64,000 nt of DNA, from contig JBIJBE010000013.1 of NCBI GenBank assembly GCA_044345405.1, positions 1-64,000 of the forward strand. The letters are read 5' to 3'. Below, piece by piece: positions 444 through 32,359 of this stretch; position 1 is the first letter of the stretch; the number at the start of each line of letters is the position of its first letter. The notes beneath the pieces are model-generated. The model had not been told where the DNA came from. It saw only the letters and a program-made list of their open reading frames with translations, and did no database searches. The position numbers and the translations under genes are program-made. Origin of the DNA: Bdellovibrionota bacterium. Lineage in GTDB: Bacteria; Bdellovibrionota_C; UBA2361; OMII01.

Positions 444-868
444 ACTAGTGTTTAATCGACGGTAACAACCACGTACACACAGCCAGGCCCTCGTATCGTA
501 TTTCAAAATTCCCGCTGGGTATTTCGAAAGTGCCGAGACGATTCCGCCCTGTACGCCCCGTTTCGCGAAAATCTCAAAATGCTCACTGCGGAAACTTCTT
601 TCGCTACCCTACAGGACCGGCTTCCCGACCTCGGCCCCATGCAGCCGTGATGCCAATCCATAAACCGCCGGAGATGCACCCATGAGACCGCGCGTACCTT
701 CCCTTCGGAGCGCTCTAGAAGGATATCCCAGGTATCCAGGCCATGCATCAGAGAAAAGCTCGTGAACGGTCCCCCACTCAGTGGGGGCGTTCGAACTTGC
801 TCGAACTAGGAGTCCACAAAGGCGCTTTAAAAAGAGGCCCCACGGTCCACCACGAGAAACAAGAGGAA

Positions 869-1993
869 TCAGTTTTTCCAGGTAGTAAGGTCGAAGTACC
901 TTTTGAGAAACCAGCTCATAGGAGCGCTAAAGTACCTCATTTGGTGTTCGTGGCCGAAATACATCTGGGGGACGAATAGATTGAGAAGGAAGAGATGCCC
1001 CACCACCCTCTGAAAACTTTTTGCCTCCCACCGCTGAGCGAGGGCGAGAAACCCTAACCAGATGACCGGGAACGCGGCGCCCATCAACCGAGTCGTATCG
1101 ACCGCCACATACAGCTGCCCCCCCGCACAAGCGAGGATCAAGAGATAGAGGACGACTTCGAGGAAATTCTTCTCCCGCAGGTGGATGCCAACCGCAAACG
1201 CCGGTATCACCCAAAATAATTTGAAAGCTTGAAAGGCGCCGGCGTACAATCCTTTTGAAACGCCAAGGAGAGCCCCCGCGTTTGACGGACTGAAATAGTA
1301 CGACACTCCGTAGGTGGGAGGTTGATACGAAGCCACGTACCTCACCCACCAATACCAAGGCAATGCGCTCAATCCCATGAGCACGATCGCTACCAAGGCG
1401 CGAGAAACTTTTCGATCGTTTCGCAGGTAATAGAACAACAGGAACCAAGGGAAGACACAAAAATTACTCTCATGATTAAGCAACGCCAGGGCCAACATCC
1501 ACGGCCATACAAGGTTGTTACGCACAGCGCACATTGCGAGGAGGATCAAGGCGTAGGAGGTGATGTCGGTGAACCCCGGAAAGTGAATGAAAAAAAGTAT
1601 TGGAGAGGAGAAAGCCATCACCGCCGCGCCGAGCACAGATGTCGTAGGAGGAAGCCCTTGTCTCCGAGCCACCACATACAAGAGGGCAAGAAACGCGACG
1701 CCGATGATATCGATGAAGAGAAGGAAGTCGTGATACGGGAAATAAGGCAAGCGGTATGCGTAGTGCGCGAGGAGAGATGTCAAAATTCGATTTTGCACCT
1801 TGTACCCTTCGAGGAAATTGAAGGGATTGAATGACATCAGCGTGTATTCCCCTCCGTTACCCGTGGGACCAGGTCCGGGCTCGACATAGATGCGAGCGAG
1901 CCATAACAACGCCATGCCGATAAGGACACCGCTGACAAACTTGCTAACTCGACGTTCAATGAACAGGAGGATTTCGTCAATTCGAGGAGTCAC
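869..1993 (-). CDS. Uncharacterised polytopic membrane protein, paralog 1 of 3 (putative GT-C-like)
   Basis: 374-aa hydrophobic ORF with GTG start. Shares RID.LL, RILT.L.AHYAY, RNNLVWPWMLA.ALLNHE and FQAFKLFW with the two neighbouring paralogs. Confidence 0.85.
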   Translation of the reverse strand: MTPRIDEILLFIERRVSKFVSGVLIGMALLWLARIYVEPGPGPTGNGGEYTLMSFNPFNFLEGYKVQNRILTSLLAHYAYRLPYFPYHDFLLFIDIIGVAFLALLYVVARRQGLPPTTSVLGAAVMAFSSPILFFIHFPGFTDITSYALILLAMCAVRNNLVWPWMLALALLNHESNFCVFPWFLLFYYLRNDRKVSRALVAIVLMGLSALPWYWWVRYVASYQPPTYGVSYYFSPSNAGALLGVSKGLYAGAFQAFKLFWVIPAFAVGIHLREKNFLEVVLYLLILACAGGQLYVAVDTTRLMGAAFPVIWLGFLALAQRWEAKSFQRVVGHLFLLNLFVPQMYFGHEHQMRYFSAPMSWFLKRYFDLTTWKN

Positions 1994-15661: not shown

Positions 15662-18346
15662 CTACCGCTTAAACCAAGAGAAGATACCTTTCGAGGATGC
15701 CTTCTCCTCGACGTCCTGATCATTAGCCGAGAGAAGATCACTGGAAGCGAGCACGCTGGCAACGGAATCCACCCGCGCCTCACGTGAAGCCTCCTCCGCG
15801 TCAGCCAAGATACCGATAACTTTTACGTCTTGTTGAACGGTGTGAAAAACTTCGTTGTACGCCGATACAAGAGAAACCTCGATCCGAAGACCTGAGGCGT
15901 TCATGTCTGGCAAAGTGTACTCGAACTCAACAGGCACCTGACTCAATCCCATCTGTTGTCGAACCCACGCCGCTGAGTGATGGGAGACAAGTCGATGCTT
16001 AAAGATCCGCTCCGCGCCGCCATCATTCTTCACAAGCGAAGCTACTACGGTAATTCCATCCTCGAGATGTCGTCCGTGAGGTATATTGAGCAACGATCGG
16101 CATGAAAGCCTGGTCGTCTGGACATAGGTGTTCGCGGCGATATCCACGATCTGAGGTCCGGGGTTGCCAACCTCAACAACGTGCTTACCACCACTTGTGA
16201 GCGGTCGAACGAAGAACTCCTTTGTCTCGGAGAGGAAGACTTCACCGTTCAGAGAGAGAGCGCGTACCCGCGCGAAGAGGCGAACTTTAGAGTTGGCGCG
16301 TTGCGCCTCAGAACCGAAGTACCAACCGAGAAGCTCCTCTCGCTTGAAGTTCGCCACGATCGAGTGCTCCGCGAAGCCCGAATGGCCCTCGACACACACT
16401 CCACGAGTGACCGGTTTAAAGCTCATGCCGAGTGAATCCGAGAACGCTTGAAGAAGGAGGTGTCCATCCTCTCGCTCAATCGAGACTTCAACTCGGTATG
16501 GGGAGAAAAGCTCTCCTGCCCGTCCAGCGGCGAGATCCGCAAGCTGCTTCGAGGAGTTTTTGGGTGAGAAGGTGGCCTGAACTCGCACTCCCTCTTCACC
16601 GCCAAACACCCACGCCGGTTCGATCTCGATTGACTCAAGCTCGATGACACTCGCCGCCGGAGAGAGCGCGAGAGCGCCGCCGGTGGCGCGAATGCCATCA
16701 TCAGCGTTCGCCACGGGAGCCGCTTTATCACCAGCAACATGCACGGATACGATCCCCATATCGCCGCACAAGATGCGCTCATCAGCGGAAACGATAACCA
16801 CCTCACACGTCAACGTGTGTGTACCTGACGACAACAACAAGAATTCAACGGGGATATCGATCTGCAATCCTCGATAGTAGGCCCACGCGCCGCGAGGATG
16901 GAGCACTCGCCGGTATCGATATGAGGAAACGGACTCAACAGGAACGTTAAGTTCCGAGGCCACATACGGAATGCCGAGCGAGGAGAGCTCTACGATCTCC
17001 CCCTTCTCGTCAATAAACCGACACTCAAGGAGAACGCTCTCTCCGGCGTGCATAAAGAGGGAGAGATCAAATTGCACGGATACCGTTCGTCGCTCCCATC
17101 CACCGACAACCCTGTATCCAGAACTCACTCGAAGATCAGAGATTTTATCACCCGACACTACGTCGTGTGGCCACATTCCCACCGAGTGAGGAGCGGGCAC
17201 ATGGGCACCCACAAGCTCTCGGCGTGGGACGCAGATACTATCGGGACGGGACGCGCTGAGCACCTCACGCCCATCGTTATCAACAACCGAGATAACGAGT
17301 TCCACGTCACAGCGACCAGAGGGAAGATCGAGGGCCGCGTATGGAAGAAAGGCTCGAATCTCGTCGATCACTAGTCGCTGCGCTTGCGGACGGATCGGAA
17401 CCAACGAGCAGAACTCCGTCTGCTCAGGCACTACCTCGCACAGCTCTGATCCACCTGGATCGGTCCAGCTCGACCAATCAGCTCGAGCCGAAACGGGTCG
17501 CCCGTTCCACCGAGCGGATACTCGAAGCCACAAAGGTTGACCATCATGTCCCACGAGCCGCAGGCCGCACATGACGAAGCACCCTTTCGTGCCAAACACC
17601 TGATGGTCGTGAAGCACCTCGAAACCGAAAAGAGCGTCCTCCTCATCGAAGGTTGGCTCAAGGTAGCCATCAGCGAGCGCGCCCTTCGAGATCTGGTCAA
17701 CTTCAAGGCCAGCCAAGCTCATCTTTCGGCGCACATACCACTTAAGCAACATGGTCAGCTCATCGAGCTCACGTCCGATGTCGTAGTCGAAGGAGGCGTT
17801 GGCGCCCGCGCTTGAACTCTTGCCACGCGACATCCCCTCCCGTTCGTCCATTGAGATGGCGGTAAGAGCAGCCTGCGCCCGACGAACAAGTCCGCTGACG
17901 ATGGACGTTTCAACGGATCCCGCGTAGAGCGCGTTCAAAAGGAGCGGCACGTTCGGATCGAGCGTAAAGAGACCTGTTTCGCGATGCGTGATTTGACGCG
18001 CAATTTTCAATACGAGCTCGGCGACCTTCGAAACCGCTACGGAACTAGCGCGCCGAGAACGTCCACGATACTTGGCTGATTTGCGAATCTCCTCCTCAAG
18101 GGGGGCGATGAACGATTGGAGCGATTCCGATCGCTCGTTTATGACCTTGCGAACCTCAAACCCGCTCATCGGGCGAGGCTCTCGAACAGCTACCGCGCGG
18201 GTCAATTTAGTTTGAGGGGAAACACCGCCCGACTTGGCGACTTTGAGTGGAGATGTTCCATCCCCGTTAGCGTGTTCAGCTCCGTGCTGCTGGGGGATCT
18301 CTTTCTCAACTACGCTCATGTCTTCCGGTAAACTACTAGGGTACAT
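15662..18346 (-). CDS. Large hypothetical protein with repeated beta-rich modules
   Basis: 894-aa ORF filling the gap between neighbouring genes; no family recognised with confidence. Confidence 0.8.
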   Translation of the reverse strand: MYPSSLPEDMSVVEKEIPQQHGAEHANGDGTSPLKVAKSGGVSPQTKLTRAVAVREPRPMSGFEVRKVINERSESLQSFIAPLEEEIRKSAKYRGRSRRASSVAVSKVAELVLKIARQITHRETGLFTLDPNVPLLLNALYAGSVETSIVSGLVRRAQAALTAISMDEREGMSRGKSSSAGANASFDYDIGRELDELTMLLKWYVRRKMSLAGLEVDQISKGALADGYLEPTFDEEDALFGFEVLHDHQVFGTKGCFVMCGLRLVGHDGQPLWLRVSARWNGRPVSARADWSSWTDPGGSELCEVVPEQTEFCSLVPIRPQAQRLVIDEIRAFLPYAALDLPSGRCDVELVISVVDNDGREVLSASRPDSICVPRRELVGAHVPAPHSVGMWPHDVVSGDKISDLRVSSGYRVVGGWERRTVSVQFDLSLFMHAGESVLLECRFIDEKGEIVELSSLGIPYVASELNVPVESVSSYRYRRVLHPRGAWAYYRGLQIDIPVEFLLLSSGTHTLTCEVVIVSADERILCGDMGIVSVHVAGDKAAPVANADDGIRATGGALALSPAASVIELESIEIEPAWVFGGEEGVRVQATFSPKNSSKQLADLAAGRAGELFSPYRVEVSIEREDGHLLLQAFSDSLGMSFKPVTRGVCVEGHSGFAEHSIVANFKREELLGWYFGSEAQRANSKVRLFARVRALSLNGEVFLSETKEFFVRPLTSGGKHVVEVGNPGPQIVDIAANTYVQTTRLSCRSLLNIPHGRHLEDGITVVASLVKNDGGAERIFKHRLVSHHSAAWVRQQMGLSQVPVEFEYTLPDMNASGLRIEVSLVSAYNEVFHTVQQDVKVIGILADAEEASREARVDSVASVLASSDLLSANDQDVEEKASSKGIFSWFKR

Positions 18347-18728
18347 ACGTTACCAAATTCCGGCGTCCTTCTGACCTTTCAGGACAACGCCGAGAATGCT
18401 CGATCGACCACAAAACAACCAGCCTCCGCCTCCCCGAACCACCCTGGGGGCGCATAAGGTCACCTTCTTGAATATTTTCAGATAGTTCCCTATTGCTTTG
18501 GGTCGTTTTTTGGATCACTCTGCGGCCACTGGGGAGATGAAATCCCACCTGGAGCAGGCGGGATTTCTACCTCACTTTTGACGAAACTTTCAACCCATGT
18601 TGTGAAGTTCTCGACCGATTTCCGGTGGTTTGTACAAATCCCCCCACTTGGAATATAAAGCGGTGCTCTGGCAGAGGATTTGAGTCACTAATCTGTCAGC
18701 ACGATTGTACATCAAAAAGAGGAAGTCC

Positions 18729-20021
18729 ATGGCAACCGAGATAAAGATGCCGCAACTGAGCGATACGATGAGTTCTGGTAAGATCCTTACCTGGAAGAAG
18801 AAGGAAGGCGATCAGATAAGCCGTGGCGACATCCTTGCTGAAGTTGAGACCGACAAAGCGAACCTCGAGATCGAGTCGTTCTTCAACGGCGTTCTTTTGA
18901 AGATCCTCACCCCCGCAAACTCAACCGCTAAGGTTGGAGAGATCATCGCAGTCATCGGTGCCGCGGGAGAATCAGTTTCAGCCGGTTCGACTCCAGCGGC
19001 TTCCGCTCCAGCACCAACTCCAGCGCCAAAAGCGGCAGCTCCAGCGCCAACTCCATCGATACCAGCTCCCGCGGCTCCAACAGCTCCATTGAGCGTTGTG
19101 GCAGGCGGAGATCGTGTGAAGGCGAGCCCTCTCGCGAAGCGAGTGGCTGAGCAACTTCAGGTAAACCTCTCATCTGTCCAAGGCTCAGGACCAAACGGAC
19201 GGATCATTCGACGCGATGTAGAGGCCGCGGCCGGTGGCTCCACCGCTCCAGAGTATCACCAAGCGCCGGCGCCTCAATACCACGCGGCGCCAGCTCCGAC
19301 AGCGGCTCCAACCCCAGCAGCGGCGCCAACGCAACCTGGCGCGGGAACGTACACCGCCCTCTCCAAGATGCGCGAGACGATCGCTCGTCGTATGCAGGAG
19401 AGCGTTAACACATCACCACACTTCTACTGCACGACCTCGATCAACATGGGAGAGGCGCTCCGACTTCGAGAGGTTCTTAAGGAACTTCCGGAGTACAAGG
19501 GCATCAGCGTCAATCACTTGGTAATAAAGGCGGCGGCATACGCCCTTAAGCGTGAGCCAAAGGTAAACGCCGCGATGAAGAATGAGCAGCTCTATCAGCC
19601 AGCTCAAATCAACATCGGTATCATCACCGCGATTCCAGATGGACTCCTTATTCCTGTCTTGAAGGAAGTTGATTCGATGAACCTTAAGGATGTTGTATTC
19701 GAGGCTCGCGCGGCGATTGAACGAGCTCGTGCTGGCCGCCCAAGCTCAACCGATCTCTCGGGTGGAACGTTCAGTATCTCCAACATGGGAATGTTTGACG
19801 TTGAGAACTTCACGGCGATCATCAACCCTGGTCAGGGAGGTATTCTCGCCGTGAGCGCGGTTCAGAAGCAGCCGATCGTTCACAACGGGCAGATCGTTGT
19901 TGGTTCCATCATGAAGGCTACCGTATCCGTTGATCACCGAATTATCGACGGCGTGATGTCGGCAACGTTCCTCAAGCACTTCAAGGAAGCGCTTGAGACC
20001 CCTGCCCTCCTCATGGCGTAG
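18729..20021 (+). CDS. pdhC: Pyruvate dehydrogenase E2, dihydrolipoamide acetyltransferase
   Basis: Lipoyl domain (MPQLSDTM...EVETDKA), E3-binding ASPLAKR and catalytic DHRIIDG. Confidence 0.93.
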   Translation: MATEIKMPQLSDTMSSGKILTWKKKEGDQISRGDILAEVETDKANLEIESFFNGVLLKILTPANSTAKVGEIIAVIGAAGESVSAGSTPAASAPAPTPAPKAAAPAPTPSIPAPAAPTAPLSVVAGGDRVKASPLAKRVAEQLQVNLSSVQGSGPNGRIIRRDVEAAAGGSTAPEYHQAPAPQYHAAPAPTAAPTPAAAPTQPGAGTYTALSKMRETIARRMQESVNTSPHFYCTTSINMGEALRLREVLKELPEYKGISVNHLVIKAAAYALKREPKVNAAMKNEQLYQPAQINIGIITAIPDGLLIPVLKEVDSMNLKDVVFEARAAIERARAGRPSSTDLSGGTFSISNMGMFDVENFTAIINPGQGGILAVSAVQKQPIVHNGQIVVGSIMKATVSVDHRIIDGVMSATFLKHFKEALETPALLMA

Positions 20022-20049
20022 TTGAAAACCTAAAAAGCGGGTCTTTTGT

Positions 20050-20952
20050 ATGTCAGTTGAAGTTCCAAGAAATACAGAGAAGATCGTGAAACCATCCTGG
20101 TTGAAGGTTCGAGCTCCTGGCTCACCTGAGTATCTTGAGACCCGCAAAATCGTGAAGACCCTCAATCTTCATACGGTGTGCGAGGAGGCTCAGTGCCCCA
20201 ATATCGGAGAGTGCTGGTCTCATCACACCGCGACCTTCATGATCATGGGTGAGCTATGCACCCGGAAGTGCCACTTCTGCTCGGTAAAGAAGGGAAGCGC
20301 CGATACCCTCCAACCTCTCGATCCGTTCGAGCCAGAGCGTGTCGGTATCGCGGTGAAGGAGCTTGGTCTTAAGCACGCGGTTATTACCTCAGTAGACCGA
20401 GACGATGTGGCGGATAACGGCGCTCAACACTTCCTCAAAACCGTGAAGTCGGTTCGTACACACGCTCCAGGGTGCAAGATCGAATTGCTCATTCCTGACC
20501 TGAAGGGGTCTCGCGCAGACCTCGAGACGATCCTCAGCGCTAAGATCGATGTGCTTAATCACAACGTAGAAACCGTGCCTCGTCTCTACAAGAAAGTTCG
20601 CCCAGGCGCAGGCTACATTCGGTCCCTTTCGATCCATCGTTGGGCTAAAGAGATCGATCCATCCGTAGTCACCAAGACCGGCATCATGGTCGGGCTCGGC
20701 GAAACGAAGGATGAGGTATTACGCTTGATGGACGATCTTCGCGCCATAGACATAGACGTTATGACGATCGGGCAATACCTTCGTCCAACGGAACGACAAC
20801 TTCCGGTCCGGGCCTTCATCACTCCTGATGAATTCAAGGAGTATGAAGAGGAGGGAATCAAGCGTGGCTTCAAGTTTGTCGAGTCAGGGCCCTTCGTTCG
20901 CAGCTCGTATCACGCTTGGAAGCACACCGCGGATATCGCGGTACGAGAGTAG
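20050..20952 (+). CDS. lipA: Lipoyl synthase
   Basis: CEEAQCPNIGEC, CTRKCHFC and RSSYHA motifs. Confidence 0.98.
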   Translation: MSVEVPRNTEKIVKPSWLKVRAPGSPEYLETRKIVKTLNLHTVCEEAQCPNIGECWSHHTATFMIMGELCTRKCHFCSVKKGSADTLQPLDPFEPERVGIAVKELGLKHAVITSVDRDDVADNGAQHFLKTVKSVRTHAPGCKIELLIPDLKGSRADLETILSAKIDVLNHNVETVPRLYKKVRPGAGYIRSLSIHRWAKEIDPSVVTKTGIMVGLGETKDEVLRLMDDLRAIDIDVMTIGQYLRPTERQLPVRAFITPDEFKEYEEEGIKRGFKFVESGPFVRSSYHAWKHTADIAVRE

Positions 20953-20959
20953 CAACTAA

Positions 20960-21694
20960 ATGGCGGCCATGAGCGTTACTTCCAGCGACCATCGCGGCGA
21001 ACTGTACCTTATTCCCAACCTCCTCGGCGAAACGGCTCTCGACTCATCTCTTCCACCGGTCATAGCGACGATTACCGCCTCCATCTCTCACTTCGTGGTT
21101 GAAGAGGAGAAATCGGCGCGGCGCTTCATTAAACTTCTCTGTCCAGATCGTGTCATTCGGGAGCTCTCCCTCCAGGTACTCAACGAGCACACGAAGCCTC
21201 ACGAAATCGATGCGCTCACAGCCCCACTCCTTCAAGGCCATAACGTGGGGATTATCTCGGAGGCTGGATGCCCCGCTATCGCGGATCCTGGCGCCGAACT
21301 CGTCCGTCGCGCGCACGAACTTGGCATCGCTGTTCGTCCCCTCGTAGGCCCCTGCTCGATGACGCTTGCCCTGATGGCGTCCGGTTTTAACGGGCAACGG
21401 TGGCGGTTCGTAGGCTATCTCCCGATCGAAGGGGGCGCTCGTAAGGACACGATCCGCGCTCTGGAAAAAGATCTCTATGAACATCAGGAAACTCAGATCG
21501 TGATGGACACTCCGTATCGCAATCAGAAGCTCTTTGAGGAGCTCCTCACGACATGCAGACCCGAGACCCGTATCTGCATAGCGTCTGCCCTCACCACCGA
21601 ACAGGAATCGATAGCGGTTCGCTCGGTACACGAGTGGCGTGCCATGGGATTCACAGTACCCAAATCCCCGGCGATCTTCCTCTTGGGTCGATAG
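20960..21694 (+). CDS. RsmI-like tetrapyrrole-methylase family SAM-dependent methyltransferase
   Basis: LYLIP..LG, ISEAGCPAIADPG, LALMASGFNGQ and TPYRN motifs. Confidence 0.85.
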   Translation: MAAMSVTSSDHRGELYLIPNLLGETALDSSLPPVIATITASISHFVVEEEKSARRFIKLLCPDRVIRELSLQVLNEHTKPHEIDALTAPLLQGHNVGIISEAGCPAIADPGAELVRRAHELGIAVRPLVGPCSMTLALMASGFNGQRWRFVGYLPIEGGARKDTIRALEKDLYEHQETQIVMDTPYRNQKLFEELLTTCRPETRICIASALTTEQESIAVRSVHEWRAMGFTVPKSPAIFLLGR

Positions 21695-22062
21695 CGGTCA
21701 CGCGTCCTCAAGGACGAGGCACTTATCCCAGAAAAATAAGCATCTTACCCACCGTTTCTTACCCACGGCAGGGTTCCAACTTGGCTCCAGAGGTAGTAAA
21801 ACACCTTGTACTTTGAGGTGGGCTCAGACGACGCATCGTTAGCGACGCGTTACCGCCCGGAACGAAGTGACGTAGCCGTAGGGTACCGATACATGTCGTC
21901 TATCGCGCCTTCTCAAACTCTGGCCATACTCTCACGGAGATCTCTTCGATCCCGCGCGCTCTCTTTCTCTTTCTCGCCTCGATTCCGGTCCCCCTCGTTC
22001 CCGCCTACTTCCTCGGATCTCATTCATTCCCGGTATCGCTGTACCCCTGAACGACGAACCGC

Positions 22063-25000
22063 ATGAAGCGTATCTCTGGAAACATCCTTGCTCTATTCGG
22101 ACTCATCCTCGGTTTGGTGAGCGGGCTTGGGGTCGTTACGCTTAAACGATACATCATCGGAGAGATCGTCCAAGCCCTTAACGAGGAGGTGGCGACATCG
22201 TGCAAAACGTGTTCGCTCTCATATGACTCATTCTCGCTCTCGTTCTTAACTCTCTCGGGCAAAGTTACGGGCGTCAAACTCCTCGACAACGGGACCCCGA
22301 AGCTCACCTTTGACAAGATAACCGCGACCTTCAGCATCAACGAAATCCTCGATCAAAAGGTTTACCTTGAGACCCTCATTCTCTCGGATGGACACGCTGA
22401 TGGTGTGGGACCCGACTCCCCCACCTTCCGCTTCATCGAACAGATAACGTCACCCCTACCACCGGAGCTCGCCAACCAGCCGCGATGGCGCGCGATCCTC
22501 AACAACCTTGAGATCCGAACGACCTCGCTTCGAGAATCGTTCGGGATGAGCGAGCTGTATGGTCACAACCTCTCCCTCTTTGTTAAACGGATCGGCGAGG
22601 AGTTCGTTATTCTTCCTGAGCTTAAAGACCTTCGCTACCGTTCGTTCCTCAATGAGGAAAAGACAGAGGTGCAGGAGCTCCCCCTGGGCCAATTAACCGG
22701 ATCCGTGGTCATCGAAGAGAATCAAGCCGTCTTCAACGGATTAAAACTTGGGCGAGATATCTCAACGGTCGATCTCAAAGGAGCCGCGGATACCGCGCAT
22801 GGGGACGCGCTATCAGGTAGCGCGGCGTACACTATCGACGCTCAATATGTTGGGATCCCCTCGTGGCTTCAAGGTCTCCTGACGGGAACCGGATCGCTGA
22901 AAGGAACACTCGGAAGCCCCATCATTGAAGGCTCGCTGACCCACGCGGAATCAGCGCCACTCACCCTCGCGTTCCCTCACGCGTCACCAGTCAAGTTGTC
23001 ATCCATCAAAGGAGACCTCTCGGTCGACGTCAATCACGGAGACCCTGTTGTAACCCTCCGAAACATCGCGGGAACCGGGGACAAATCAAAATTGACCGGC
23101 ACTCGACCACTCGTATTCTCTGATGAAGGGCTCTCCGCTGGATTTGACGTAGCACTCCCCTCGTTCACCTATGGTCCGTTCTCAGTACATGACGCGTCCG
23201 CCACTATTTCGGTGCGACCCAGTGGAAAAGACACCATCACAACCTTTGTCGTTCAAGCCGCGGATCTTAAAGTTCAAGGAACCTCTCTTGGACCGGTAAA
23301 GATTAACCTCGCCCTTGAGCCGCGTGGCATCTCGGTAAAGGTTGATTCTAGTGACCCTCGATACGGAACTCTTCGTTGGGACGGGTTCATCGATACTGTT
23401 GGAGCGGAGCCCTTCCTCAAAGATGGAAAGCTACTCCTTGAGAACTATCGCTATCCCCAAACCAGCCCACCGGATCCCTCTCGCCTTAGTCCGATTCAAC
23501 TCACAACCTCACTACCACTCTCTGGTCCTCTCGATCTCGCCAAGCTCGCGGGAGAAGGCCCCACAACAGTCGCGATTCCAGATTTTGGTCTTGGTCTCTC
23601 GATGAGCGGCAAAACAACGCTCAAGGATGGCAACCTCCTCGTGAACCTTCCAACATCCACGCAGCAGGCCTCGATGAATCTGAAGCTTGATGTGGCGCGA
23701 ACGTTCAACGGCAAGCTACAGATGGCGCTACCCGCCTCTCCGCTCTCCAGCTTTGTTCAGGAGGCTGACTGTGGCGTCATCGACGCGTCTCTCGATTACA
23801 ACTTCAGCATGTCCGCTCCACTCGGAGGCTCAGGCAACCTGATATTGGGAGACTTCTATGTAGGATGCGAGCCGTACGTTCTTCGCGTTCCTAAGAACAC
23901 GACCTTGCCGATAACAGTTGGCGCGCTCCGATTTAAAAATACCCGTCTCTCGAGCGGAGACACGGCGCTCATTCTCGATGGGTCTCTTGGTTTCGAGCCG
24001 GGGTTCGATCTCTCTCTCACCGGAGATCTCCACCTTAGCTCCCTTCTCCCTCTTCTCCCCTCCGTCGATAACTTACGGGGACTCCTCTCCACCAAGGTCT
24101 CTATCAAAGGACCTCTCGCCATGCCACGCTTCTTAGGAACGGCTGCCCTCTCTGATGGAGAGCTCGCGGTCGCGTCACCCGACATAGGGGCCCATGATGT
24201 TAAGGGACGTTTTGTTCTTTCCGAGGATACGATCAAGATAGACAGTTTGACGGGCTCGGCGAACTCCGGCTCCTTCGTGGTAAAGGGAAGTCTTGTCCCC
24301 TTTAACTGGCCGAACTCTCGCATGACCGCCGAACTAAAGGAGGTCACGATTGAGCCCGCGGCGGACGCCTCTATCACCTTCTCAGGCAACCTCGCTCTAG
24401 GCCCGAATAAAAATAAACACCAAACGCTCTCGGGAGACATCGGAATCGACTTCGCCGAGATCTCCAAGGATTTCGATCTCAACAAGATCCTCGTTCAAAC
24501 TATCAAAGGGTACTTCATTCCCGCGCGCGTCCAGCCTCAGATCAGTAAGAAGCCGGTCTCGCTTGACCTCGACGTAAAATTCTCCGCGCCTCGAAATATA
24601 TTCGTGCTCACCCCTTTCTTCAGCGCGGAACTCAACGCGAACATTTACGCGGGTGGCACCACAGCGGACCCCGCGCTCAATGGCTCGATGCAACTTTTAA
24701 GTGGATGGGTTGGACTTAAAGGAAATCGATTCGACGTCACATCAGGAAGTCTCACCTTCAAGCCAGGCTCATTAACTCCTACCATTGAGATCGCGAGCGA
24801 GGGGAATCTTCGAGCGCCAACTGGTGAGAGCGTGCTCGTGATTCTTGAGGCGTCCGGTCCCCTCACCGCTCCTCGCATCGCGCTGTCATCTGATCGCGGA
24901 CTGTCGCAAGAAGATCTCTTGCTCTTAATCACCTCCTCGCGGTCACTCACAGGACGAACGATGGCGAATCGGGTGGGAAATCAGTTCGCGCAAGACCAGC

Positions 25001-27789
25001 GATACTTCCTTTCCGAGGACTCGTTCAGCAGCGTTGAGGCGTTCTTCCGAAACCTCACCAAGATCGACACCCTCTCCTTCGAACCAACCTACAATCCCTA
25101 TACCGGTCTGGTAGAGCCGGCCGTCGTGGCGAAAAAGACACTGACGCCACGATTCGCGTTCGTCGGAAACAGCCTCTTTAGTAGCGTCAGCAATTCAAAG
25201 GTAGGCGCGGTGTACAACCTCACACCGAATCTCGACGTCAACGGATTTATCCAGTCTGTGAGCACACAGCAAAACCTTATCTTAAGTTCAGATCTGACCT
25301 ATACCATTCTCGCCGAACAAGCGGTTCTGGTGGATATAAAGGTTCAAGGCGCGGATCGAACGGATGAGCAGGATATTCTTAGCGCCGCTCGTATCGGTTC
25401 GGATTCACGAATACAAAACAATCCGGAGAGCCTGGCGACCATCCAACGAAACATCACCAGCTACCTCCACGATCAGGGCCTTCTCGGGGCGACGGTGGAT
25501 GTCTCCTGTCGCCTAGCCGATCATTTCTGCAAGCAACTCCTGATTACGATTAACGAGGGGGCCCCCTTTACGATCGGAGAGACGCGCGTAGAGGGTAACA
25601 CCCTCCCTGATACGATCACTTCTATCATGAGGTCTGTGGCCCCCCCCGGAACCGCGGCGCTTGGATCTGTAACCCAGCAGCTTGAGCGAAAACTAGTACT
25701 GGCGTTACGAAATGAAGGGTACATAGCGGCTCGAATAACACCTCTCTACGTCCATACCGATACGCCTCATACAGTTGATCTCGTCGTAAAGAGCGACCTA
25801 CGGGAACCGATATCGTTCAAGTTCTCGGGAAATACGGTTTTTACCGACGAACAGTTCCTCGACTCTATTGAGCTCTTTTCTCGAAAGCGTCCGTTCGGAA
25901 ACAATACCGTCAAATTGCTAGTTCAAAATATCGAGCAGATGTATCAGGCCGCCGGATACCTTTTCGCCCAGGTCTCCTACACCGAGGATCGCACTGATAC
26001 ACAACGACTCGTGTACACCATCACCATCTCTGAGGAAGCTCAAACTAAGGTGCGAGAGTTAAAGCTCGTTGGCAATGACTCACTCTCGGAGAAAAAGATT
26101 AAAAAGGAGATGCGAGACCTCGGCCTCACCGAGCAAATTGAGCTCCTGAAGCCCACCTACGCTATTCCAGCTCAACTTGAAACACTCAAGACGATCATCG
26201 AGACGGTCTATCAACAGGAGGGGTTCCCCAACGTTCAAGTCTCCTACACAATAGAGCCCGTTGAAAACGGCACCGCTCTCGACATCAACTACCACGTGGT
26301 GGAGGGAGAGCCTCTGCGAATTCAGAGCCTTTCCGTCAAAGGCTTTCCGGGCGACATCAAGATTCGAGAAGCGCCTCCGACGCCAGCCTCCTTGCCAGCA
26401 ATCAACCAATACATCGAGCATCTTGTGGCTCAACTCGAAGAAGAGGGCTTCATGGCGCCGACTATCGATGTCGACCCCTCACCTGACACCGCGCACGTCG
26501 ACTTCTTGATAGATCCAGGGCCTCGTTCAATCATCTCATCGGTGACCGTTGAGGGCCTCTCGCTCATCGATGAGTCAGTCGCCCGTAAATACATCCTTCT
26601 TGAGCCAGGCAAGCCCTTCCGCACCGAGGATGTGAACGCTTCCAAACGCGAGCTCCTTCGCTCCGGCCTCTTCTCCCGGGTGGAGGTAGTGCCAAGTGAC
26701 GGCTCCTTCGACCATCCAAAAGAGGCGATAACAGTACGCCTCGCCGAGCGAGCGCTTGAGACGCTGGAGGTGGGAACGGGCGCCAATTCAGAGTTCGGGC
26801 TCCATGTGTTCGGGGAAGCGGTCGATAAGTCGTTCTTCGCTGATGGACGAACCCTTTCAACGCGAATCGACACCTACTTTGATCAAGCTCAGATTAATCC
26901 GAATGGATCCAGCGCTATCAGTCAGGGATTCGCGAACGTACGGTACATGGACCCGTTCTTCCTCGGCTCGCAATACGCGCTCACCGAGGAATTGCGTTTT
27001 CAACGCCAAGAGCTTTCTACGCAGGAATTCAATCTGGATCGTATGACCTTCGCGTCCTACCTCTTCAGACAGTTCGAGTCACGAGTCACCTTTACCGGAG
27101 GTCACTCCCTCACCCTCGACAACTTGAACGATGTAAATCCTGGCGCGGTTATCACTCCGCTCGACACGGGCCATGTTCGGTTAAGCTTTCTCTCCGGCTT
27201 GTTGAAGTTCGACACCCGCGACGATCCCCTCACTCCTCACAACGGGTACACATTCACGGTCGAGCCAAAGCTCTCATTCCAGCAGATAGGATCAGAGGCT
27301 AACTTCGGCGGAATCCTCTCTAAAGCGACTGGGATCGTTCCGTTGGAGAGGATCCTCTCGCCTCGATTCTCTCTTGGATTGGGTCTATCAGGTGGGATCG
27401 CGCAACCGTGGGGCGACACGGTGGGAATCCCTATCACCCAGCGATTCTATCTCGGTGGTCGTACAACCGTTCGCGGATTCAAGGAGAACTCGCTTGGTCC
27501 TCTGGGCGATAACGGAGCGGTCATCGGTGGAGACACCCTCCTCATGGAGAAAAACCAGTTCCAATACCTGGTGACGGACTCCTTCAGTACACACACCTTT
27601 GTCGATATCGGCAACGTGTTCCTCCGCCACGAAAGCTTTGACCTTGCGGACCTCCGCTCAAGCACCGGCTTCGGATTCCAGTACATATCCCCTATCGGTC
27701 CTATCGGTTTTGACGTGGGGTACCCACTCGATAGAAAACCAAACGAGGATGTGTATCGGATTCACTTCTCCGTCGGTAGTACCTTCTAG
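22063..27789 (+). CDS. TamB/AsmA-like region fused to about six POTRA domains and an Omp85 (TamA/BamA-type) barrel
   Basis: N-terminal TM segment; long beta-rich region with TamB-like C-terminal part; repeated POTRA-type units (I.V.GN...Y...GY...V); barrel motifs DTRDD, FYLGGRTTVRGF and ISPIGPIGFDVGY; C-terminal Phe. Confidence 0.88.
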   Translation: MKRISGNILALFGLILGLVSGLGVVTLKRYIIGEIVQALNEEVATSCKTCSLSYDSFSLSFLTLSGKVTGVKLLDNGTPKLTFDKITATFSINEILDQKVYLETLILSDGHADGVGPDSPTFRFIEQITSPLPPELANQPRWRAILNNLEIRTTSLRESFGMSELYGHNLSLFVKRIGEEFVILPELKDLRYRSFLNEEKTEVQELPLGQLTGSVVIEENQAVFNGLKLGRDISTVDLKGAADTAHGDALSGSAAYTIDAQYVGIPSWLQGLLTGTGSLKGTLGSPIIEGSLTHAESAPLTLAFPHASPVKLSSIKGDLSVDVNHGDPVVTLRNIAGTGDKSKLTGTRPLVFSDEGLSAGFDVALPSFTYGPFSVHDASATISVRPSGKDTITTFVVQAADLKVQGTSLGPVKINLALEPRGISVKVDSSDPRYGTLRWDGFIDTVGAEPFLKDGKLLLENYRYPQTSPPDPSRLSPIQLTTSLPLSGPLDLAKLAGEGPTTVAIPDFGLGLSMSGKTTLKDGNLLVNLPTSTQQASMNLKLDVARTFNGKLQMALPASPLSSFVQEADCGVIDASLDYNFSMSAPLGGSGNLILGDFYVGCEPYVLRVPKNTTLPITVGALRFKNTRLSSGDTALILDGSLGFEPGFDLSLTGDLHLSSLLPLLPSVDNLRGLLSTKVSIKGPLAMPRFLGTAALSDGELAVASPDIGAHDVKGRFVLSEDTIKIDSLTGSANSGSFVVKGSLVPFNWPNSRMTAELKEVTIEPAADASITFSGNLALGPNKNKHQTLSGDIGIDFAEISKDFDLNKILVQTIKGYFIPARVQPQISKKPVSLDLDVKFSAPRNIFVLTPFFSAELNANIYAGGTTADPALNGSMQLLSGWVGLKGNRFDVTSGSLTFKPGSLTPTIEIASEGNLRAPTGESVLVILEASGPLTAPRIALSSDRGLSQEDLLLLITSSRSLTGRTMANRVGNQFAQDQRYFLSEDSFSSVEAFFRNLTKIDTLSFEPTYNPYTGLVEPAVVAKKTLTPRFAFVGNSLFSSVSNSKVGAVYNLTPNLDVNGFIQSVSTQQNLILSSDLTYTILAEQAVLVDIKVQGADRTDEQDILSAARIGSDSRIQNNPESLATIQRNITSYLHDQGLLGATVDVSCRLADHFCKQLLITINEGAPFTIGETRVEGNTLPDTITSIMRSVAPPGTAALGSVTQQLERKLVLALRNEGYIAARITPLYVHTDTPHTVDLVVKSDLREPISFKFSGNTVFTDEQFLDSIELFSRKRPFGNNTVKLLVQNIEQMYQAAGYLFAQVSYTEDRTDTQRLVYTITISEEAQTKVRELKLVGNDSLSEKKIKKEMRDLGLTEQIELLKPTYAIPAQLETLKTIIETVYQQEGFPNVQVSYTIEPVENGTALDINYHVVEGEPLRIQSLSVKGFPGDIKIREAPPTPASLPAINQYIEHLVAQLEEEGFMAPTIDVDPSPDTAHVDFLIDPGPRSIISSVTVEGLSLIDESVARKYILLEPGKPFRTEDVNASKRELLRSGLFSRVEVVPSDGSFDHPKEAITVRLAERALETLEVGTGANSEFGLHVFGEAVDKSFFADGRTLSTRIDTYFDQAQINPNGSSAISQGFANVRYMDPFFLGSQYALTEELRFQRQELSTQEFNLDRMTFASYLFRQFESRVTFTGGHSLTLDNLNDVNPGAVITPLDTGHVRLSFLSGLLKFDTRDDPLTPHNGYTFTVEPKLSFQQIGSEANFGGILSKATGIVPLERILSPRFSLGLGLSGGIAQPWGDTVGIPITQRFYLGGRTTVRGFKENSLGPLGDNGAVIGGDTLLMEKNQFQYLVTDSFSTHTFVDIGNVFLRHESFDLADLRSSTGFGFQYISPIGPIGFDVGYPLDRKPNEDVYRIHFSVGSTF

Positions 27790-29122: not shown

Positions 29123-30208
29123 ATGTTTAGTACAATCGTAACAGATGATACTGGATCAAAGTTAGCGGTCCTGGAAAAGGTTAAATGTCTAAATGACATT
29201 AACGCAACGACCGACATCATCGTCGTGAGCGCCGACGCCCAGCCTGCCGAGTGGACAACTGGCATCTGGATTCAAGCTCCAACGATCGTTGCCGGCATGG
29301 CTAAGGCCGCTCAATTAGCGGCAAGCAAGCGCATCATCGTGATGAGCTCAGCAGTCGCCTTCGAGCCAGCTGATCTTGCGCGACTTGTCGCGGAGCTCGA
29401 CACTCGACAGATTCGTGAGCATACCATCGTAACCGCTCGTACCGAGTCTGGCTTTGTTCAGATCCCTGACCTTAGCGCTGAGCAAGTTCTTAACTCTATC
29501 AGCAAAACAGATATGTGGCCTCTCGTCGTCGTCGCTACGAGCCGCTTCGCTCTTAGCATGATCGGAGAGGAAGACGCTTCGTCCGCTACCGAGTACCTCG
29601 CGCAAGCGTTGGTTCGCTCAATCGCGGATGGAGATACCATTCGGCACTCAACCTTGATTGACACGGCGATCTCGGGGGCAGACCTCTCCGCCACCAGCAA
29701 ACTTTCGGATGGCGCTCGCGCTCGTATCTTGAAAGCTGCCGTTGACGCTTTCAATATCGAGGAGCTCTTCCCGAGCCACAACTGGATCTCGTATAGCCAA
29801 GAGAGCGCCGCCGCTTCGTATCACTCCATCGCGGCTCTGTTCCTCCGATTCGGAGACCCAGAGTCAGCTGCTGAGTGCCTCGATTGCAGCGAGCGTCTTG
29901 AGGAAAGCCCACGGTACTTCGCGCTTCAGGGCCTTATCCACAAGCAAAAGGGTGAGACACTCGGAGCGGTAGCGAGTTTCGTATCAAGCCTTCAGTGCTA
30001 CGAGGCTCGTAAGGTTGATAACGGTAAGCACTATATCACCTTCAAGCCAAGTAATCTTGAGGTCATCAACTCGCGATTAGTTGACGGTTTGAACGCTCTC
30101 AACAAGCGGGACAATGACAGCGCCCTGAACTACTTCTCAGAGGCGGTGTTCAATTTCGACCCGTTCTACGCGGAGCACGGAGTCCTTCCTTCTGGAAAGA
30201 CCCGCTAA
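29123..30208 (+). CDS. Hypothetical protein with TPR-like C-terminus
   Basis: 361 aa; helical repeats such as AALFLRFGDPESAAECL, QGLIHKQKGETLGAVASF and DGLNALNKRDNDSALNYF. Confidence 0.75.
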   Translation: MFSTIVTDDTGSKLAVLEKVKCLNDINATTDIIVVSADAQPAEWTTGIWIQAPTIVAGMAKAAQLAASKRIIVMSSAVAFEPADLARLVAELDTRQIREHTIVTARTESGFVQIPDLSAEQVLNSISKTDMWPLVVVATSRFALSMIGEEDASSATEYLAQALVRSIADGDTIRHSTLIDTAISGADLSATSKLSDGARARILKAAVDAFNIEELFPSHNWISYSQESAAASYHSIAALFLRFGDPESAAECLDCSERLEESPRYFALQGLIHKQKGETLGAVASFVSSLQCYEARKVDNGKHYITFKPSNLEVINSRLVDGLNALNKRDNDSALNYFSEAVFNFDPFYAEHGVLPSGKTR

Positions 30209-30421: not shown

Positions 30422-32359
30422 ATGGTCTCTCTTGTTGCTGATACCGACGTAGCGACGATATCTTCACTCTTAAGCCTCTCCGTCGCGCTCATGGGTCTGT
30501 TCGCCGCCCTTATCTGCCGACGCGGCGATACCTCAATTTCGCTCAACATTTGGTTCTCCCTCGCTTTTAGTTCCCTCTCGCTCATCACAACCGATTATCT
30601 TCGTTGGGTATGCGTATCCGTAGGAGCGGTCTGCGCCATCGCCCATCAGCGGTGGCGACGACATCAGTATGAGGTTGTCGCCCTTAATTTCCAATCCGCG
30701 CCACTGTTTATCCGCGCCATGGGCGTGATCTTGATATCGTGGATCCTTCTTTATCGCCTTGACTCAAATTTCCTTCCGCCTCTTGTCTGGGAAGCAACCA
30801 CAATCAACAACTTTTTCGCCGAGCTTTCGAGCGTTACGGTATGGAATGCCCTTCGGACACGCCTTCTATGGGCTCAAGGATTACTCAGCGAGGGAGATCG
30901 CTCCCTTCTCTATGGATATCCGACCCTTTATCTACTGAAGTTTAAAAGCTCACTCATCAGCCTCCGAGTAATGTCCGCGCTCTACTTTCTGGGGACAGCT
31001 CTCCTTCTCGCCGCCTTTTGCAAGCGCTTCTTTCATCCGACTATCGGATTGGTTGTGCTCTTCACCTTTGGTCTTAATGAGGCAGGCCTACTATTTGGCC
31101 GTTACGCCAGCTCTATCGCCGCCACACTCTTCAGTGTCGCTGCGGCACTGTACGTGTGCGCCGCGCTGATTGCGAGACCCTCGGTCAGTAAATCACTGGG
31201 AGCCGTCCTGCTCCTTTACATCGCGACCCTCGGGTACGCGCCCGGTCGGATCACGGTGCTTATTCTTCTCGGCATGACCGCTTTTGGAATTATGTGGAAC
31301 GAGGCTCAGAAGAGATCCTCTCGCCTTCATAGCTCGCTTGTGATCTGCGCTGGCGTATTGCTTGTGTGCACGGCGCAGTATCGGGCCGGACGTGTTCACT
31401 CGTTCGCGTTCGCCCGAGGCGAGCAACTCTCGATGATGATGAACAACGGCTTCTGGCCAGCGCCTGTATTGGACAAATGGAGGTCTTTTAAATCGGAGGA
31501 TAGACCACCTCACGTCCTCGACTACATCTCCTTCGCAAAAGAACTTGTCACAACAACCACGATTCCCGAGCTGCAACAGCTACTCTCTCCATTTGACCAG
31601 GCTCCTTCCCGAGCACGTCGATTCTCCTACGACCCCTTGAGGCTTGAACTCTACACCAAGCCACTCTATCCCTTTATGCTTTTGGGATTGCTGATGGCCT
31701 CGCGCTACACGACCCGATGGATTCATGCCACCTTGCTCCTTTGGCTCGTTGTAGGGGTCGTACCTGTGCTCCTTACAAATCGAGTCGACTCCTACCGAAC
31801 AAGCATGTTCATTATTCCCCTCTCGATCTGGCTAGCGGTGGGAATCGCGGAGGCTATCAATGAGGCGCGACGCGCTCGTATCCCTCGCGTTCTTGTCACC
31901 TGCGTTCCACTCGCGGCAGCGCTCGCAATCACGCTCCATCGCACCGAATCTCTTCATTTCGCCGGTGTTTCACCTTCAGCGACGGATCTCGTCATTAGCG
32001 AAGTTTCGCCGCGAATCCTTCACAACGCCACCGTAGGTGTCGAGGCCATAGAATTCAGAACACGAGCTCTCACGAATGTACTCCTCTTACAGAGAGAGCA
32101 GCGCGGTTGGATTAATCCCCGAATCGTCATGCCCGAAGACACGTACCAAGAACTGGTGAGTACCGAATCCTCAGAGGAGCACGAGAAAGCATTCGAAAAA
32201 CTTGTTGAGGACCTCACCAATCATAGACCACTCATCGTAGGGCCCTACCACGTCATGACGCCCACCCTAGAGGCGTTGTCACGTCGGGGCTTCAAAGTCT
32301 GGCCCCTTCGAGTGCGTCATCTGGAATTGGCGTATGTTGAGAACGGGGCCCCGCGCTAG
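30422..32359 (+). CDS. GT-C-like (ArnT/PMT-like) polytopic membrane protein
   Basis: 645 aa, many TM segments, ILLYRL...WE and SLISLRVMSALY pattern similar to the 10556-12757 protein. Confidence 0.65.
   Translation: MVSLVADTDVATISSLLSLSVALMGLFAALICRRGDTSISLNIWFSLAFSSLSLITTDYLRWVCVSVGAVCAIAHQRWRRHQYEVVALNFQSAPLFIRAMGVILISWILLYRLDSNFLPPLVWEATTINNFFAELSSVTVWNALRTRLLWAQGLLSEGDRSLLYGYPTLYLLKFKSSLISLRVMSALYFLGTALLLAAFCKRFFHPTIGLVVLFTFGLNEAGLLFGRYASSIAATLFSVAAALYVCAALIARPSVSKSLGAVLLLYIATLGYAPGRITVLILLGMTAFGIMWNEAQKRSSRLHSSLVICAGVLLVCTAQYRAGRVHSFAFARGEQLSMMMNNGFWPAPVLDKWRSFKSEDRPPHVLDYISFAKELVTTTTIPELQQLLSPFDQAPSRARRFSYDPLRLELYTKPLYPFMLLGLLMASRYTTRWIHATLLLWLVVGVVPVLLTNRVDSYRTSMFIIPLSIWLAVGIAEAINEARRARIPRVLVTCVPLAAALAITLHRTESLHFAGVSPSATDLVISEVSPRILHNATVGVEAIEFRTRALTNVLLLQREQRGWINPRIVMPEDTYQELVSTESSEEHEKAFEKLVEDLTNHRPLIVGPYHVMTPTLEALSRRGFKVWPLRVRHLELAYVENGAPR

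Follow-up and report, generated by a model that had tools for sequence, protein, structure and literature searches.

A conserved gene joining TamB to a POTRA-Omp85 barrel in an uncultured Bdellovibrionota bacterium encodes a candidate single-chain translocation and assembly module

In contig JBIJBE010000013.1 of assembly GCA_044345405.1, from an uncultured lake bacterium of the Bdellovibrionota, a single gene on the forward strand encodes a TamB-type protein, a row of POTRA domains and an Omp85 barrel in one polypeptide (positions are those of the window, that is, the whole stretch of 64,000 nucleotides that was analysed). This fused gene is a genuine feature and not an assembly artefact. We consider that its product is probably a single-chain TAM (translocation and assembly module), with an inner-membrane anchor at one end and a barrel in the outer membrane at the other. 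TamB and TamA are normally partner proteins that together bridge the inner and outer membranes, and the conservation of TamB and a TamA-like barrel in one chain suggests that the pair is a permanent unit. The interest of the fusion lies in its bearing on the mechanism of TAM and in a possible single chain in two membranes; neither the fold nor the system is new. The parts of the gene are as follows.

22063..27789, + strand: whole fused gene, an open reading frame (ORF) kept at full length in about 98 protein clusters
22075..22143, + strand: helix resembling a signal anchor (residues 5-27, with 8-26 as its hydrophobic core), preceded by a basic MKR, from hydropathy and AlphaFold2 (AF2)
22210..24891, + strand: TamB/AsmA-type repeating β-groove (residues 50-943), from AF2, Foldseek and VIA
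24907..25314, + strand: TamB C-terminal domain with helices at 949-999, six β-strands at 1003-1084 and the last strand LILSSDLTYTIL, from AF2
25312..25332, + strand: fusion junction, comprising the last TamB strand, a link of 4-6 residues and the first POTRA strand, from sequence and AF2 secondary structure
25327..26748, + strand: six POTRA domains (1089-1165, 1170-1245, 1250-1323, 1329-1413, 1422-1484 and 1490-1562), from AF2 and Pfam
26758..27786, + strand: Omp85 barrel of 16 strands (residues 1566-1908), with RTTVRGF as its loop-6 motif and ...HFSVGSTF as its C-terminal end, from Pfam and AF2

A sequence-only reading of the window had described an uninterrupted frame of 1908 aa, and the gene is indeed a single ATG-started ORF of 1908 aa plus a stop codon, with 0 internal stops. 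The motif SSDLTYTILAE, which that reading had taken as the end of the TamB-like part, occupies residues 1075-1085 (nt 25285-25317), as it had said. The reading had proposed that the junction be checked across reads and that related genomes be surveyed, and both comparisons favour a continuous gene. The ~98 clusters, which come from several sources, are ~1900 aa long with 28-95% identity, and all carry the TamB, POTRA and Omp85 Pfam families. When a 201-aa query (residues 1000-1200) was compared with 91 genomes of the same order, its own genome included, the junction was crossed in one stop-free frame in 85. Among the remaining six, four genomes (G095, G043, G071, and G118; 62-92% complete) gave no match, the match in G119 begins at a contig edge, and G120 gave a weak BamA-like match only; a split form was seen in none of these six. 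The junction stretch also occurs in metagenomes of lake or freshwater origin, in 20 runs from 20 studies; 10 of these runs are flagged as possible sources. Four runs not so flagged were compared: the contigs of three bridge nt 25285-25330 with 0 gaps, those of the fourth break at 25256/25265, and no insertions or deletions are listed across the junction stretch in the contigs of these four. No homopolymer run occurs in the junction DNA. Because of the ~98 clusters, the 85 genomes, and the gapless contigs in three of four runs, the feature is more than chance or artefact, and the fusion is kept intact across the whole order.

Two further loci were seen in this comparison. In a genome of the same genus (G081:C231:9358-15166), the TamB half lies in two frames that change near residue 745 on one contig, with the junction intact, and an N-terminal piece in G093 (G093:C11:4769-5485) contains a TAG codon. 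Both could be sequencing errors or decay.

The structure was predicted with two overlapping AF2 models built from a 53-row alignment, one of residues 1-1100 (mean pLDDT 81.3, pTM 0.54) and one of residues 729-1908 (mean pLDDT 78.7, pTM 0.61). Residues 50-943 are modelled as near-unbroken strands with pLDDT mostly 80-95, and Pfam TamB (PF04357) matches residues 729-1081 with 93.2 bits (cut-off 22.4), covering profile positions 3-378 of 381. The best Foldseek match of the N-terminal model was 9xdc_B, the E. coli TamB in a TamAB cryo-EM structure (E 3e-12); by VIA, model residues 625-960 superpose on TamB 870-1151 (Z 15.7, rmsd 4.3 Å, 269 residues). Other Foldseek matches include TamB 9xdd_B (9.3e-10) and LPD-3 9cap_A (5.9e-9), and the TamB crystal fragment 5vtg superposes on the same model with a VIA Z of 13.9 and an rmsd of 3.1 Å. 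Residues 5-338 gave borderline VIA Z scores of 8.1-8.8 with LPD-3, Vps13-N, and Atg2-N, which are eukaryotic bridge-like lipid-transfer proteins. The TamB/AsmA-like nature of this half, proposed by the sequence-only reading, is thus borne out by both the Pfam family and the fold. At its end, the helices at 949-999 are predicted with low confidence, while the six-strand end is seen in both models. The last strand (1073-1084) is internal and continues into POTRA1, so the chain does not end there.

Residues 1089-1562 form six β-α-α-β-β units in the AF2 secondary structure, in agreement with the "about six" POTRA-like units of the sequence-only reading, and the Pfam POTRA family scores 121 bits over 4 stretches. 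The predicted barrel is equally in line with that reading: Pfam Omp85 matches residues 1624-1908 (142.7 bits, 2.5e-41), AF2 places 16 strands with pLDDT ~80-93, FYLGGRTTVRGF and the terminal Phe are found in the protein, and a TTVRGF motif is present in which R1804 and G1805 are invariant across the 53 alignment rows. By sequence, the top PDB match was TamA 8us1 (2.3e-29). By Foldseek, the C-terminal model matched BamA 9hg5_A (6.9e-40) and TamA 8us1 with a TM-score (target) of 0.77, and POTRA4-6 plus the barrel (model 599..1180) superpose on the whole of TamA 8us3 (Z 24.9, rmsd 4.8 Å, 519/552 residues). For several PDB chains that consist of a barrel only, the alignment begins at model residue 185-289, within the TamB end, as judged from the ends of the aligned ranges only; this is the sole hint that the TamB end may dock into the barrel.

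Conservation, expressed as the average share of homologs that carry the majority residue, is strongest in the barrel (0.68), in POTRA3 (0.67), and in the six-strand domain (0.65, compared with 0.50 for residues 28-728), and weakest in POTRA1, 2, 4, and 5 (0.43-0.47). The protein has exactly six Cys residues in three close pairs (47/50, 570/602, and 1149/1156), each kept in 49-52 of 52 homologs, which would fit a periplasmic, disulfide-bonded body.

The genome (3.59 Mb in 85 contigs, a metagenome-type assembly that is 99.4% complete) also encodes the canonical machinery. A separate bamA, for which the sequence-only reading had suggested a search, is present as a 770-aa ORF with five POTRA domains (614 bits for TIGR03303, cut-off 297), and BamD is encoded as well. 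A Pfam search of the genome found no second TamB domain beyond the fused gene, and two Pfam searches found only two AsmA-like genes, namely the fused gene and a 664-aa ORF of the AsmA family. One more Omp85-related gene lies on contig C85 (L003:1261-3522, - strand): its 753-aa product combines an N-terminal patatin phospholipase (112.5 bits) with a weak Omp85 match, that is, a PlpD architecture.

A similar pair of genes is known from Bdellovibrio bacteriovorus and Myxococcus xanthus. In B. bacteriovorus, Bd2494 (DUF490) and Bd2495 (an Omp85 protein with 7 POTRA domains) are encoded in an operon headed by a gene with tetratricopeptide repeats (TPR), and the M. xanthus counterparts are MXAN_5764/5763 (PMC3983030). 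The tamB-like gene is followed there by a many-POTRA omp85, the same order as in the split relatives of our gene described below. By its description, Bd2494-Bd2495 is likely the unfused counterpart, and it is the nearest system so far described; the gene in the window differs in being fused, in having six POTRA domains rather than seven, and in having no TPR gene upstream. For Bd2494-Bd2495, a role in the export of predation proteins was proposed, and Bd2495 was called essential (Milner et al., 2014, PMC3983030), while TAM itself was first defined through autotransporter assembly (PMC11014939). It is therefore possible, if rather unlikely, that the fused protein is a dedicated assembly or secretion device for particular outer-membrane proteins rather than a lipid conduit. 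However, a TPR gene of the bd2492 kind is found upstream neither here nor in three relatives examined, the fold of the groove matches lipid-transfer proteins, and the fused gene is the only TamB gene of its genome and one of the two AsmA-like genes found. Functions in protein assembly and in lipid conduction are not exclusive and can coexist.

For a single-chain TAM, the N-terminus should stay in the inner membrane. Kyte-Doolittle hydropathy averaged over 19 residues (KD-19) peaks at 2.42 at residues 8-26, the sole window of at least 1.4 in the whole protein, and the N-terminal peak in 52 homologs has a median of 2.34 and a minimum of 1.52. It is unlikely, in our judgment, that this segment is a cleaved signal peptide, which would leave the outer-membrane barrel as the sole anchor and a free TamB N-terminus touching the inner membrane. 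Such a reading would be in keeping with the position of the segment at the extreme N-terminus after basic residues and with its small residues (…VSGLG…), but the hydrophobic run is at least ~20 residues long, the AF2 model has a continuous helix at residues 6-46, no conserved AxA-type (small-x-small) motif was found by eye in the N-termini of the 52 homologs, and E. coli TamB has been described as signal-anchored (PMC11014939). The sequence-only reading had likewise noticed a hydrophobic anchor lacking an obvious cleavage site and no signal-peptide-like stretch at the junction. The latter point also stands: the KD-19 maximum of the junction region (residues 1050-1110) is 1.33, the second-highest peak of the protein, and there is therefore no hidden signal peptide ahead of the POTRA part.

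The origin of the fusion was approached through a whole-protein search over 124 genomes of the phylum, all labelled as the same class. Genomes of the same order have a frame of ~1900 aa, whereas eight genomes of other orders have two matches adjacent on one contig. Six of these loci were examined, and in each the end of tamB (1275-1319 aa) touches or overlaps the start of omp85 (939-995 aa), with coordinates for the tamB end and omp85 start such as 4143/4143, 4099/4099, 4072/4069, and 4042/4044. In these split partners, tamB ends and omp85 begins at the point homologous to the fusion junction, and the N-termini of the split Omp85 proteins resemble cleavable signal peptides by eye. By BLAST, the split partner aligns only from its residue 75-232 on, to fused residue 1070-1207; the signal peptide of the partner and roughly one of its POTRA domains are therefore missing from the fused form. 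We infer that seven POTRA domains became six upon fusion. The stop codon was dropped as well. The split TamB proteins end in ...R(Y/F)R(K/R)(S/A)F (e.g., ...VGVRYRKSF) plus a short tail, whereas the fused strand reads ...DLTYTILAEQ. Genes upstream of the fused gene provide locus markers outside the machine itself.

18705..21694, + strand: upstream syntenic genes for E2 acyltransferase, LipA and TP_methylase, from Pfam

Directly upstream of the split pair, E2 followed by LipB-LipA is found in G023 and G005 and LipB-LipA in G031, and some relatives have a response-regulator ATPase upstream on the other strand. This synteny supports a fusion in place at the tamB-omp85 locus.

Trees were made from the last 620 residues by quick tree searches. 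The BamA proteins form one clade and all TamB-linked Omp85 proteins another, both with 100 in the Shimodaira-Hasegawa-like approximate likelihood ratio test (SH-aLRT). The sequences of the fused order also form a clade with SH-aLRT 100, in which a fused copy from G011 is nested. This genome, which belongs to another order, has both a split pair of abutting tamB and omp85 genes and a fused gene for 1875 aa (L027:1260-6887, - strand, and L037:43-4586, + strand); the double set could result from gene transfer or from bin contamination (3%). Genomes G025 and G026 of a third order have a fused gene, and that of G025 groups with split partners (SH-aLRT 98 and 90) on a long branch; one clade that unites all fused rows is not rejected by the approximately unbiased (AU) test (p 0.273). 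Within the class, there may have been one fusion event or more.

Fused proteins are also found in a second phylum. A set of proteins 2000-2500 aa long keeps the domain order but shows only 21-28% identity over about one third of the query. When the TamB-to-barrel part of one of them was used as a query, 305 proteins at E ≤1e-20 were obtained among 7993 scored candidates. All of the 120 listed of these 305 carry the TamB, POTRA and Omp85 families, and the named ones among the 120 belong to Blastocatellia, Blastocatellales or metagenome-assembled genomes of Acidobacteriota, on contigs of up to 6.3 Mb. They were deposited under automatic names such as "TamB domain-containing protein" or "BamA", and the architecture is therefore widespread and already in the databases. 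The ESM Atlas also contains clusters with TamB, POTRA and Omp85, a few members of which are labelled Acidobacteriota; we take these as leads only. Four fusions from Acidobacteriota form a clade outside the split and fused sequences of the class (SH-aLRT 97, with long-branch warnings). The trees fit either a separate fusion in Acidobacteriota or the origin of the split forms by fission, and either may have occurred.

The conservation around the junction (ILSSDLTYTIL(S/A)EQ) is what a processing site would also show, and it is conceivable, although quite improbable, that the product is a polyprotein cut near the junction into ordinary separate TamB and Omp85 chains. Nothing direct speaks for this, and the conservation is explained structurally because these residues make up the final strand of the TamB domain, from which the link to POTRA1 is only 4-6 residues. 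Moreover, Pfam finds no protease motif or autoproteolytic domain, and the chain seems adapted to being fused, as the signal peptide and the first POTRA domain of the partner have been lost. That two genes were joined by an artefact of assembly, binning or frameshift, which a window from a metagenome-type assembly in 85 contigs might have suggested, is refuted as far as the sequence data reach by the 85 of 91 genomes with an open junction, the full-length clusters, the gapless contigs, and the DNA free of homopolymers.

Several points weigh against the view of a single-chain TAM. The chain misses the cut-offs of three equivalog families, namely TamA NF047950 (129.6 bits, cut-off 625), BamA TIGR03303 (270.1 bits, cut-off 297.15), and NCBIfam TamB NF047952 (30.2 bits, cut-off 825). 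Pfam run on residues 1-728 alone finds no family even at E ≤5, the fold search covering that part instead, and pTM reaches just 0.54-0.61 in the AF2 models. The last TamB strand lacks the terminal aromatic and basic residues that the split relatives have. Signal-peptidase cleavage was assessed by eye and hydropathy only, and no RNA runs are listed among those containing the junction stretch. That one chain could span both membranes, as the sequence-only reading had proposed, is a prediction, as are its expression and its intactness.

E. coli TAM offers a framework for the way in which the single chain may work. The C-terminal domain of E. coli TamB has six strands and two helices; its last strand pairs with β1 of TamA, and the interior of the barrel contains four TamB strands (PMC12800296). 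In a 2026 preprint, E. coli TAM was still functional when β1 of TamA and the last strand of TamB were locked by a disulfide, and the stable hybrid barrel was concluded to represent the working state (PMC13119328). The strand pairing and the function of the disulfide-locked TAM make a permanent covalent union plausible. By ordinary barrel topology, the C-terminus of the last strand would face the periplasm, and it is therefore topologically possible for the chain to run on into POTRA1.

We propose that the N-terminal hydrophobic helix would stay uncleaved in the inner membrane and serve as a Sec signal-anchor, while the remaining ~1880 residues would be exported and the β-groove would fold as a hydrophobic conduit spanning the periplasm. 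The barrel, ending in ...HFSVGSTF, would emerge last and be inserted by BamA/BamD. The sequence-only reading had raised the question of how a barrel is inserted while tethered. The weight of this question is smaller than was implied: the barrel would be exported last, it has an ordinary C-terminal β-signal, and a separate β-barrel assembly machinery is encoded. The six-strand TamB end would then dock in cis with its own barrel, either into the lateral gate or at it, in the manner of the E. coli hybrid barrel, and the six POTRA domains would loop out from the barrel and back, three outbound and three TamA-like ones returning along the groove. In this geometry, POTRA6 would have to enter β1 from the periplasmic side, which is also the side on which the last TamB strand would exit. 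The docking in cis and the geometry of the POTRA loop are hypothetical. The chain would act as a TAM, carrying phospholipids to the outer membrane and perhaps aiding the assembly of some barrel proteins. We put forward more tentatively, as a possible but somewhat doubtful extension, that this polypeptide, integral to both membranes through an α-helical anchor and a β-barrel, would be a covalently closed trans-envelope lipid conduit with the TamB end permanently plugged in its own lateral gate and the POTRA domains in a hairpin loop, an arrangement that may be fixed in at least two distant lineages (the Bdellovibrionota-like order and many Acidobacteriota). If this is true, TAM never needs dissociation to work.

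The protein shares with E. coli TamA-TamB (9xdc/9xdd, PMC12800296) a putative signal anchor, a long hydrophobic β-groove, an end of six strands and helices, and an Omp85 barrel that superposes on TamA, and we presume that it does the same job. It differs from E. coli TAM in being one polypeptide and not two, in having six POTRA domains and not three, in the lack of a signal peptide on the Omp85 part, in a last TamB strand that is internal and without a terminal aromatic residue, and in TamA and TamB equivalog scores far below the cut-offs. In E. coli, tamA precedes tamB; the order here is TamB and then the barrel, unlike that of E. coli. We do not assign the protein to the equivalog families of TamA, TamB or BamA because the cut-offs are missed, the number of POTRA domains is different, a separate signal peptide is lacking, and the last strand of TamB lies within the chain.

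In type IV secretion, VirB10/TraF is reported to be one polypeptide with insertions in the inner as well as the outer membrane; in VirB10, however, the outer membrane is occupied by a helical, oligomeric part rather than an Omp85 β-barrel, and the protein is unrelated in sequence and function. The TamB-linked "duplicated BamA" with 6-7 POTRA domains is encoded in operons of Acidobacteria and Aquificae (Heinz et al., 2015, PMC4494059) and is likewise a second Omp85 paralog with extra POTRA domains, linked genetically to TamB and separate from canonical BamA. Neither "fusion" nor "fused" appears in the available main text of that paper, whereas many Acidobacteriota proteins in the databases are in fact fused. 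In Borrelia burgdorferi, a TamB-BamA hybrid has been described in which, as modelling suggests, TamB strands complete the barrel (PMC13382580, PMC5582053). This system and the chloroplast TIC236-TOC75 are likewise TamB-type bridges that end on an Omp85 barrel, but they consist of separate chains, whereas the parts are covalently joined here; moreover, the partner in Borrelia is its only BamA, and the partner here is a paralog.

No functional or descriptive account of a natural TamB-Omp85 fusion turned up in the literature searched, most subscription journals being outside its scope, and the available texts of PMC4104836, PMC4494059, PMC11014939, PMC4827864, PMC12045153, PMC10345924, and PMC12447247 contain none. 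The sequence-only reading had supposed that similar fusions might already be annotated in other lineages and knew of no functional characterisation; both suppositions agree with what was found, the deposited fusions here and in Acidobacteriota bearing automatic names.

The neighbourhood of the gene has further features. The 368-nt gap ahead of it (21695-22062) is pyrimidine-rich (…ctctttctctttctcgcctcg…) and contains two small ORFs without a Pfam family, and no obvious Shine-Dalgarno sequence precedes the ATG. Two genes downstream, a 361-aa ORF (29123-30208) has sub-threshold TPR matches (E 0.07-3.7), which is of note because a TPR protein heads the tamB operon of Bdellovibrio. ORFs of 894 aa (15662-18346, - strand) and 645 aa (30422-32359, + strand) have no Pfam family at E ≤0.001. 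The LipA of the window (20050-20952) is a stand-alone protein of 300 aa, whereas three relatives of other orders join a LipB-type lipoyl ligase to LipA in proteins of 534-543 aa (L043:2580-4184, L045:2531-4135, and L044:893-2524). The locus here shows another fusion/split difference, one that runs in the opposite direction.

Whether TAM inserts proteins, serves as a phospholipid bridge or does both is debated, as is the question of whether the hybrid barrel is a resting or a working state. A fusion kept across an order and in a second phylum argues for a fixed 1:1 stoichiometry of parts that need not separate, for a TamB C-terminus that need not be free, and for spatial closeness of the TamB end and the distal POTRA domain, a message that agrees with the disulfide-locked E. 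coli TAM that still works (PMC13119328). The fused gene offers a single-gene, single-chain object for structural work and complementation tests, and a clean natural comparison is provided by the occurrence of split and fused forms at the same syntenic locus. Should the chain stay uncleaved, it would be a rare example of a single protein that is embedded in the two membranes of a bacterium.

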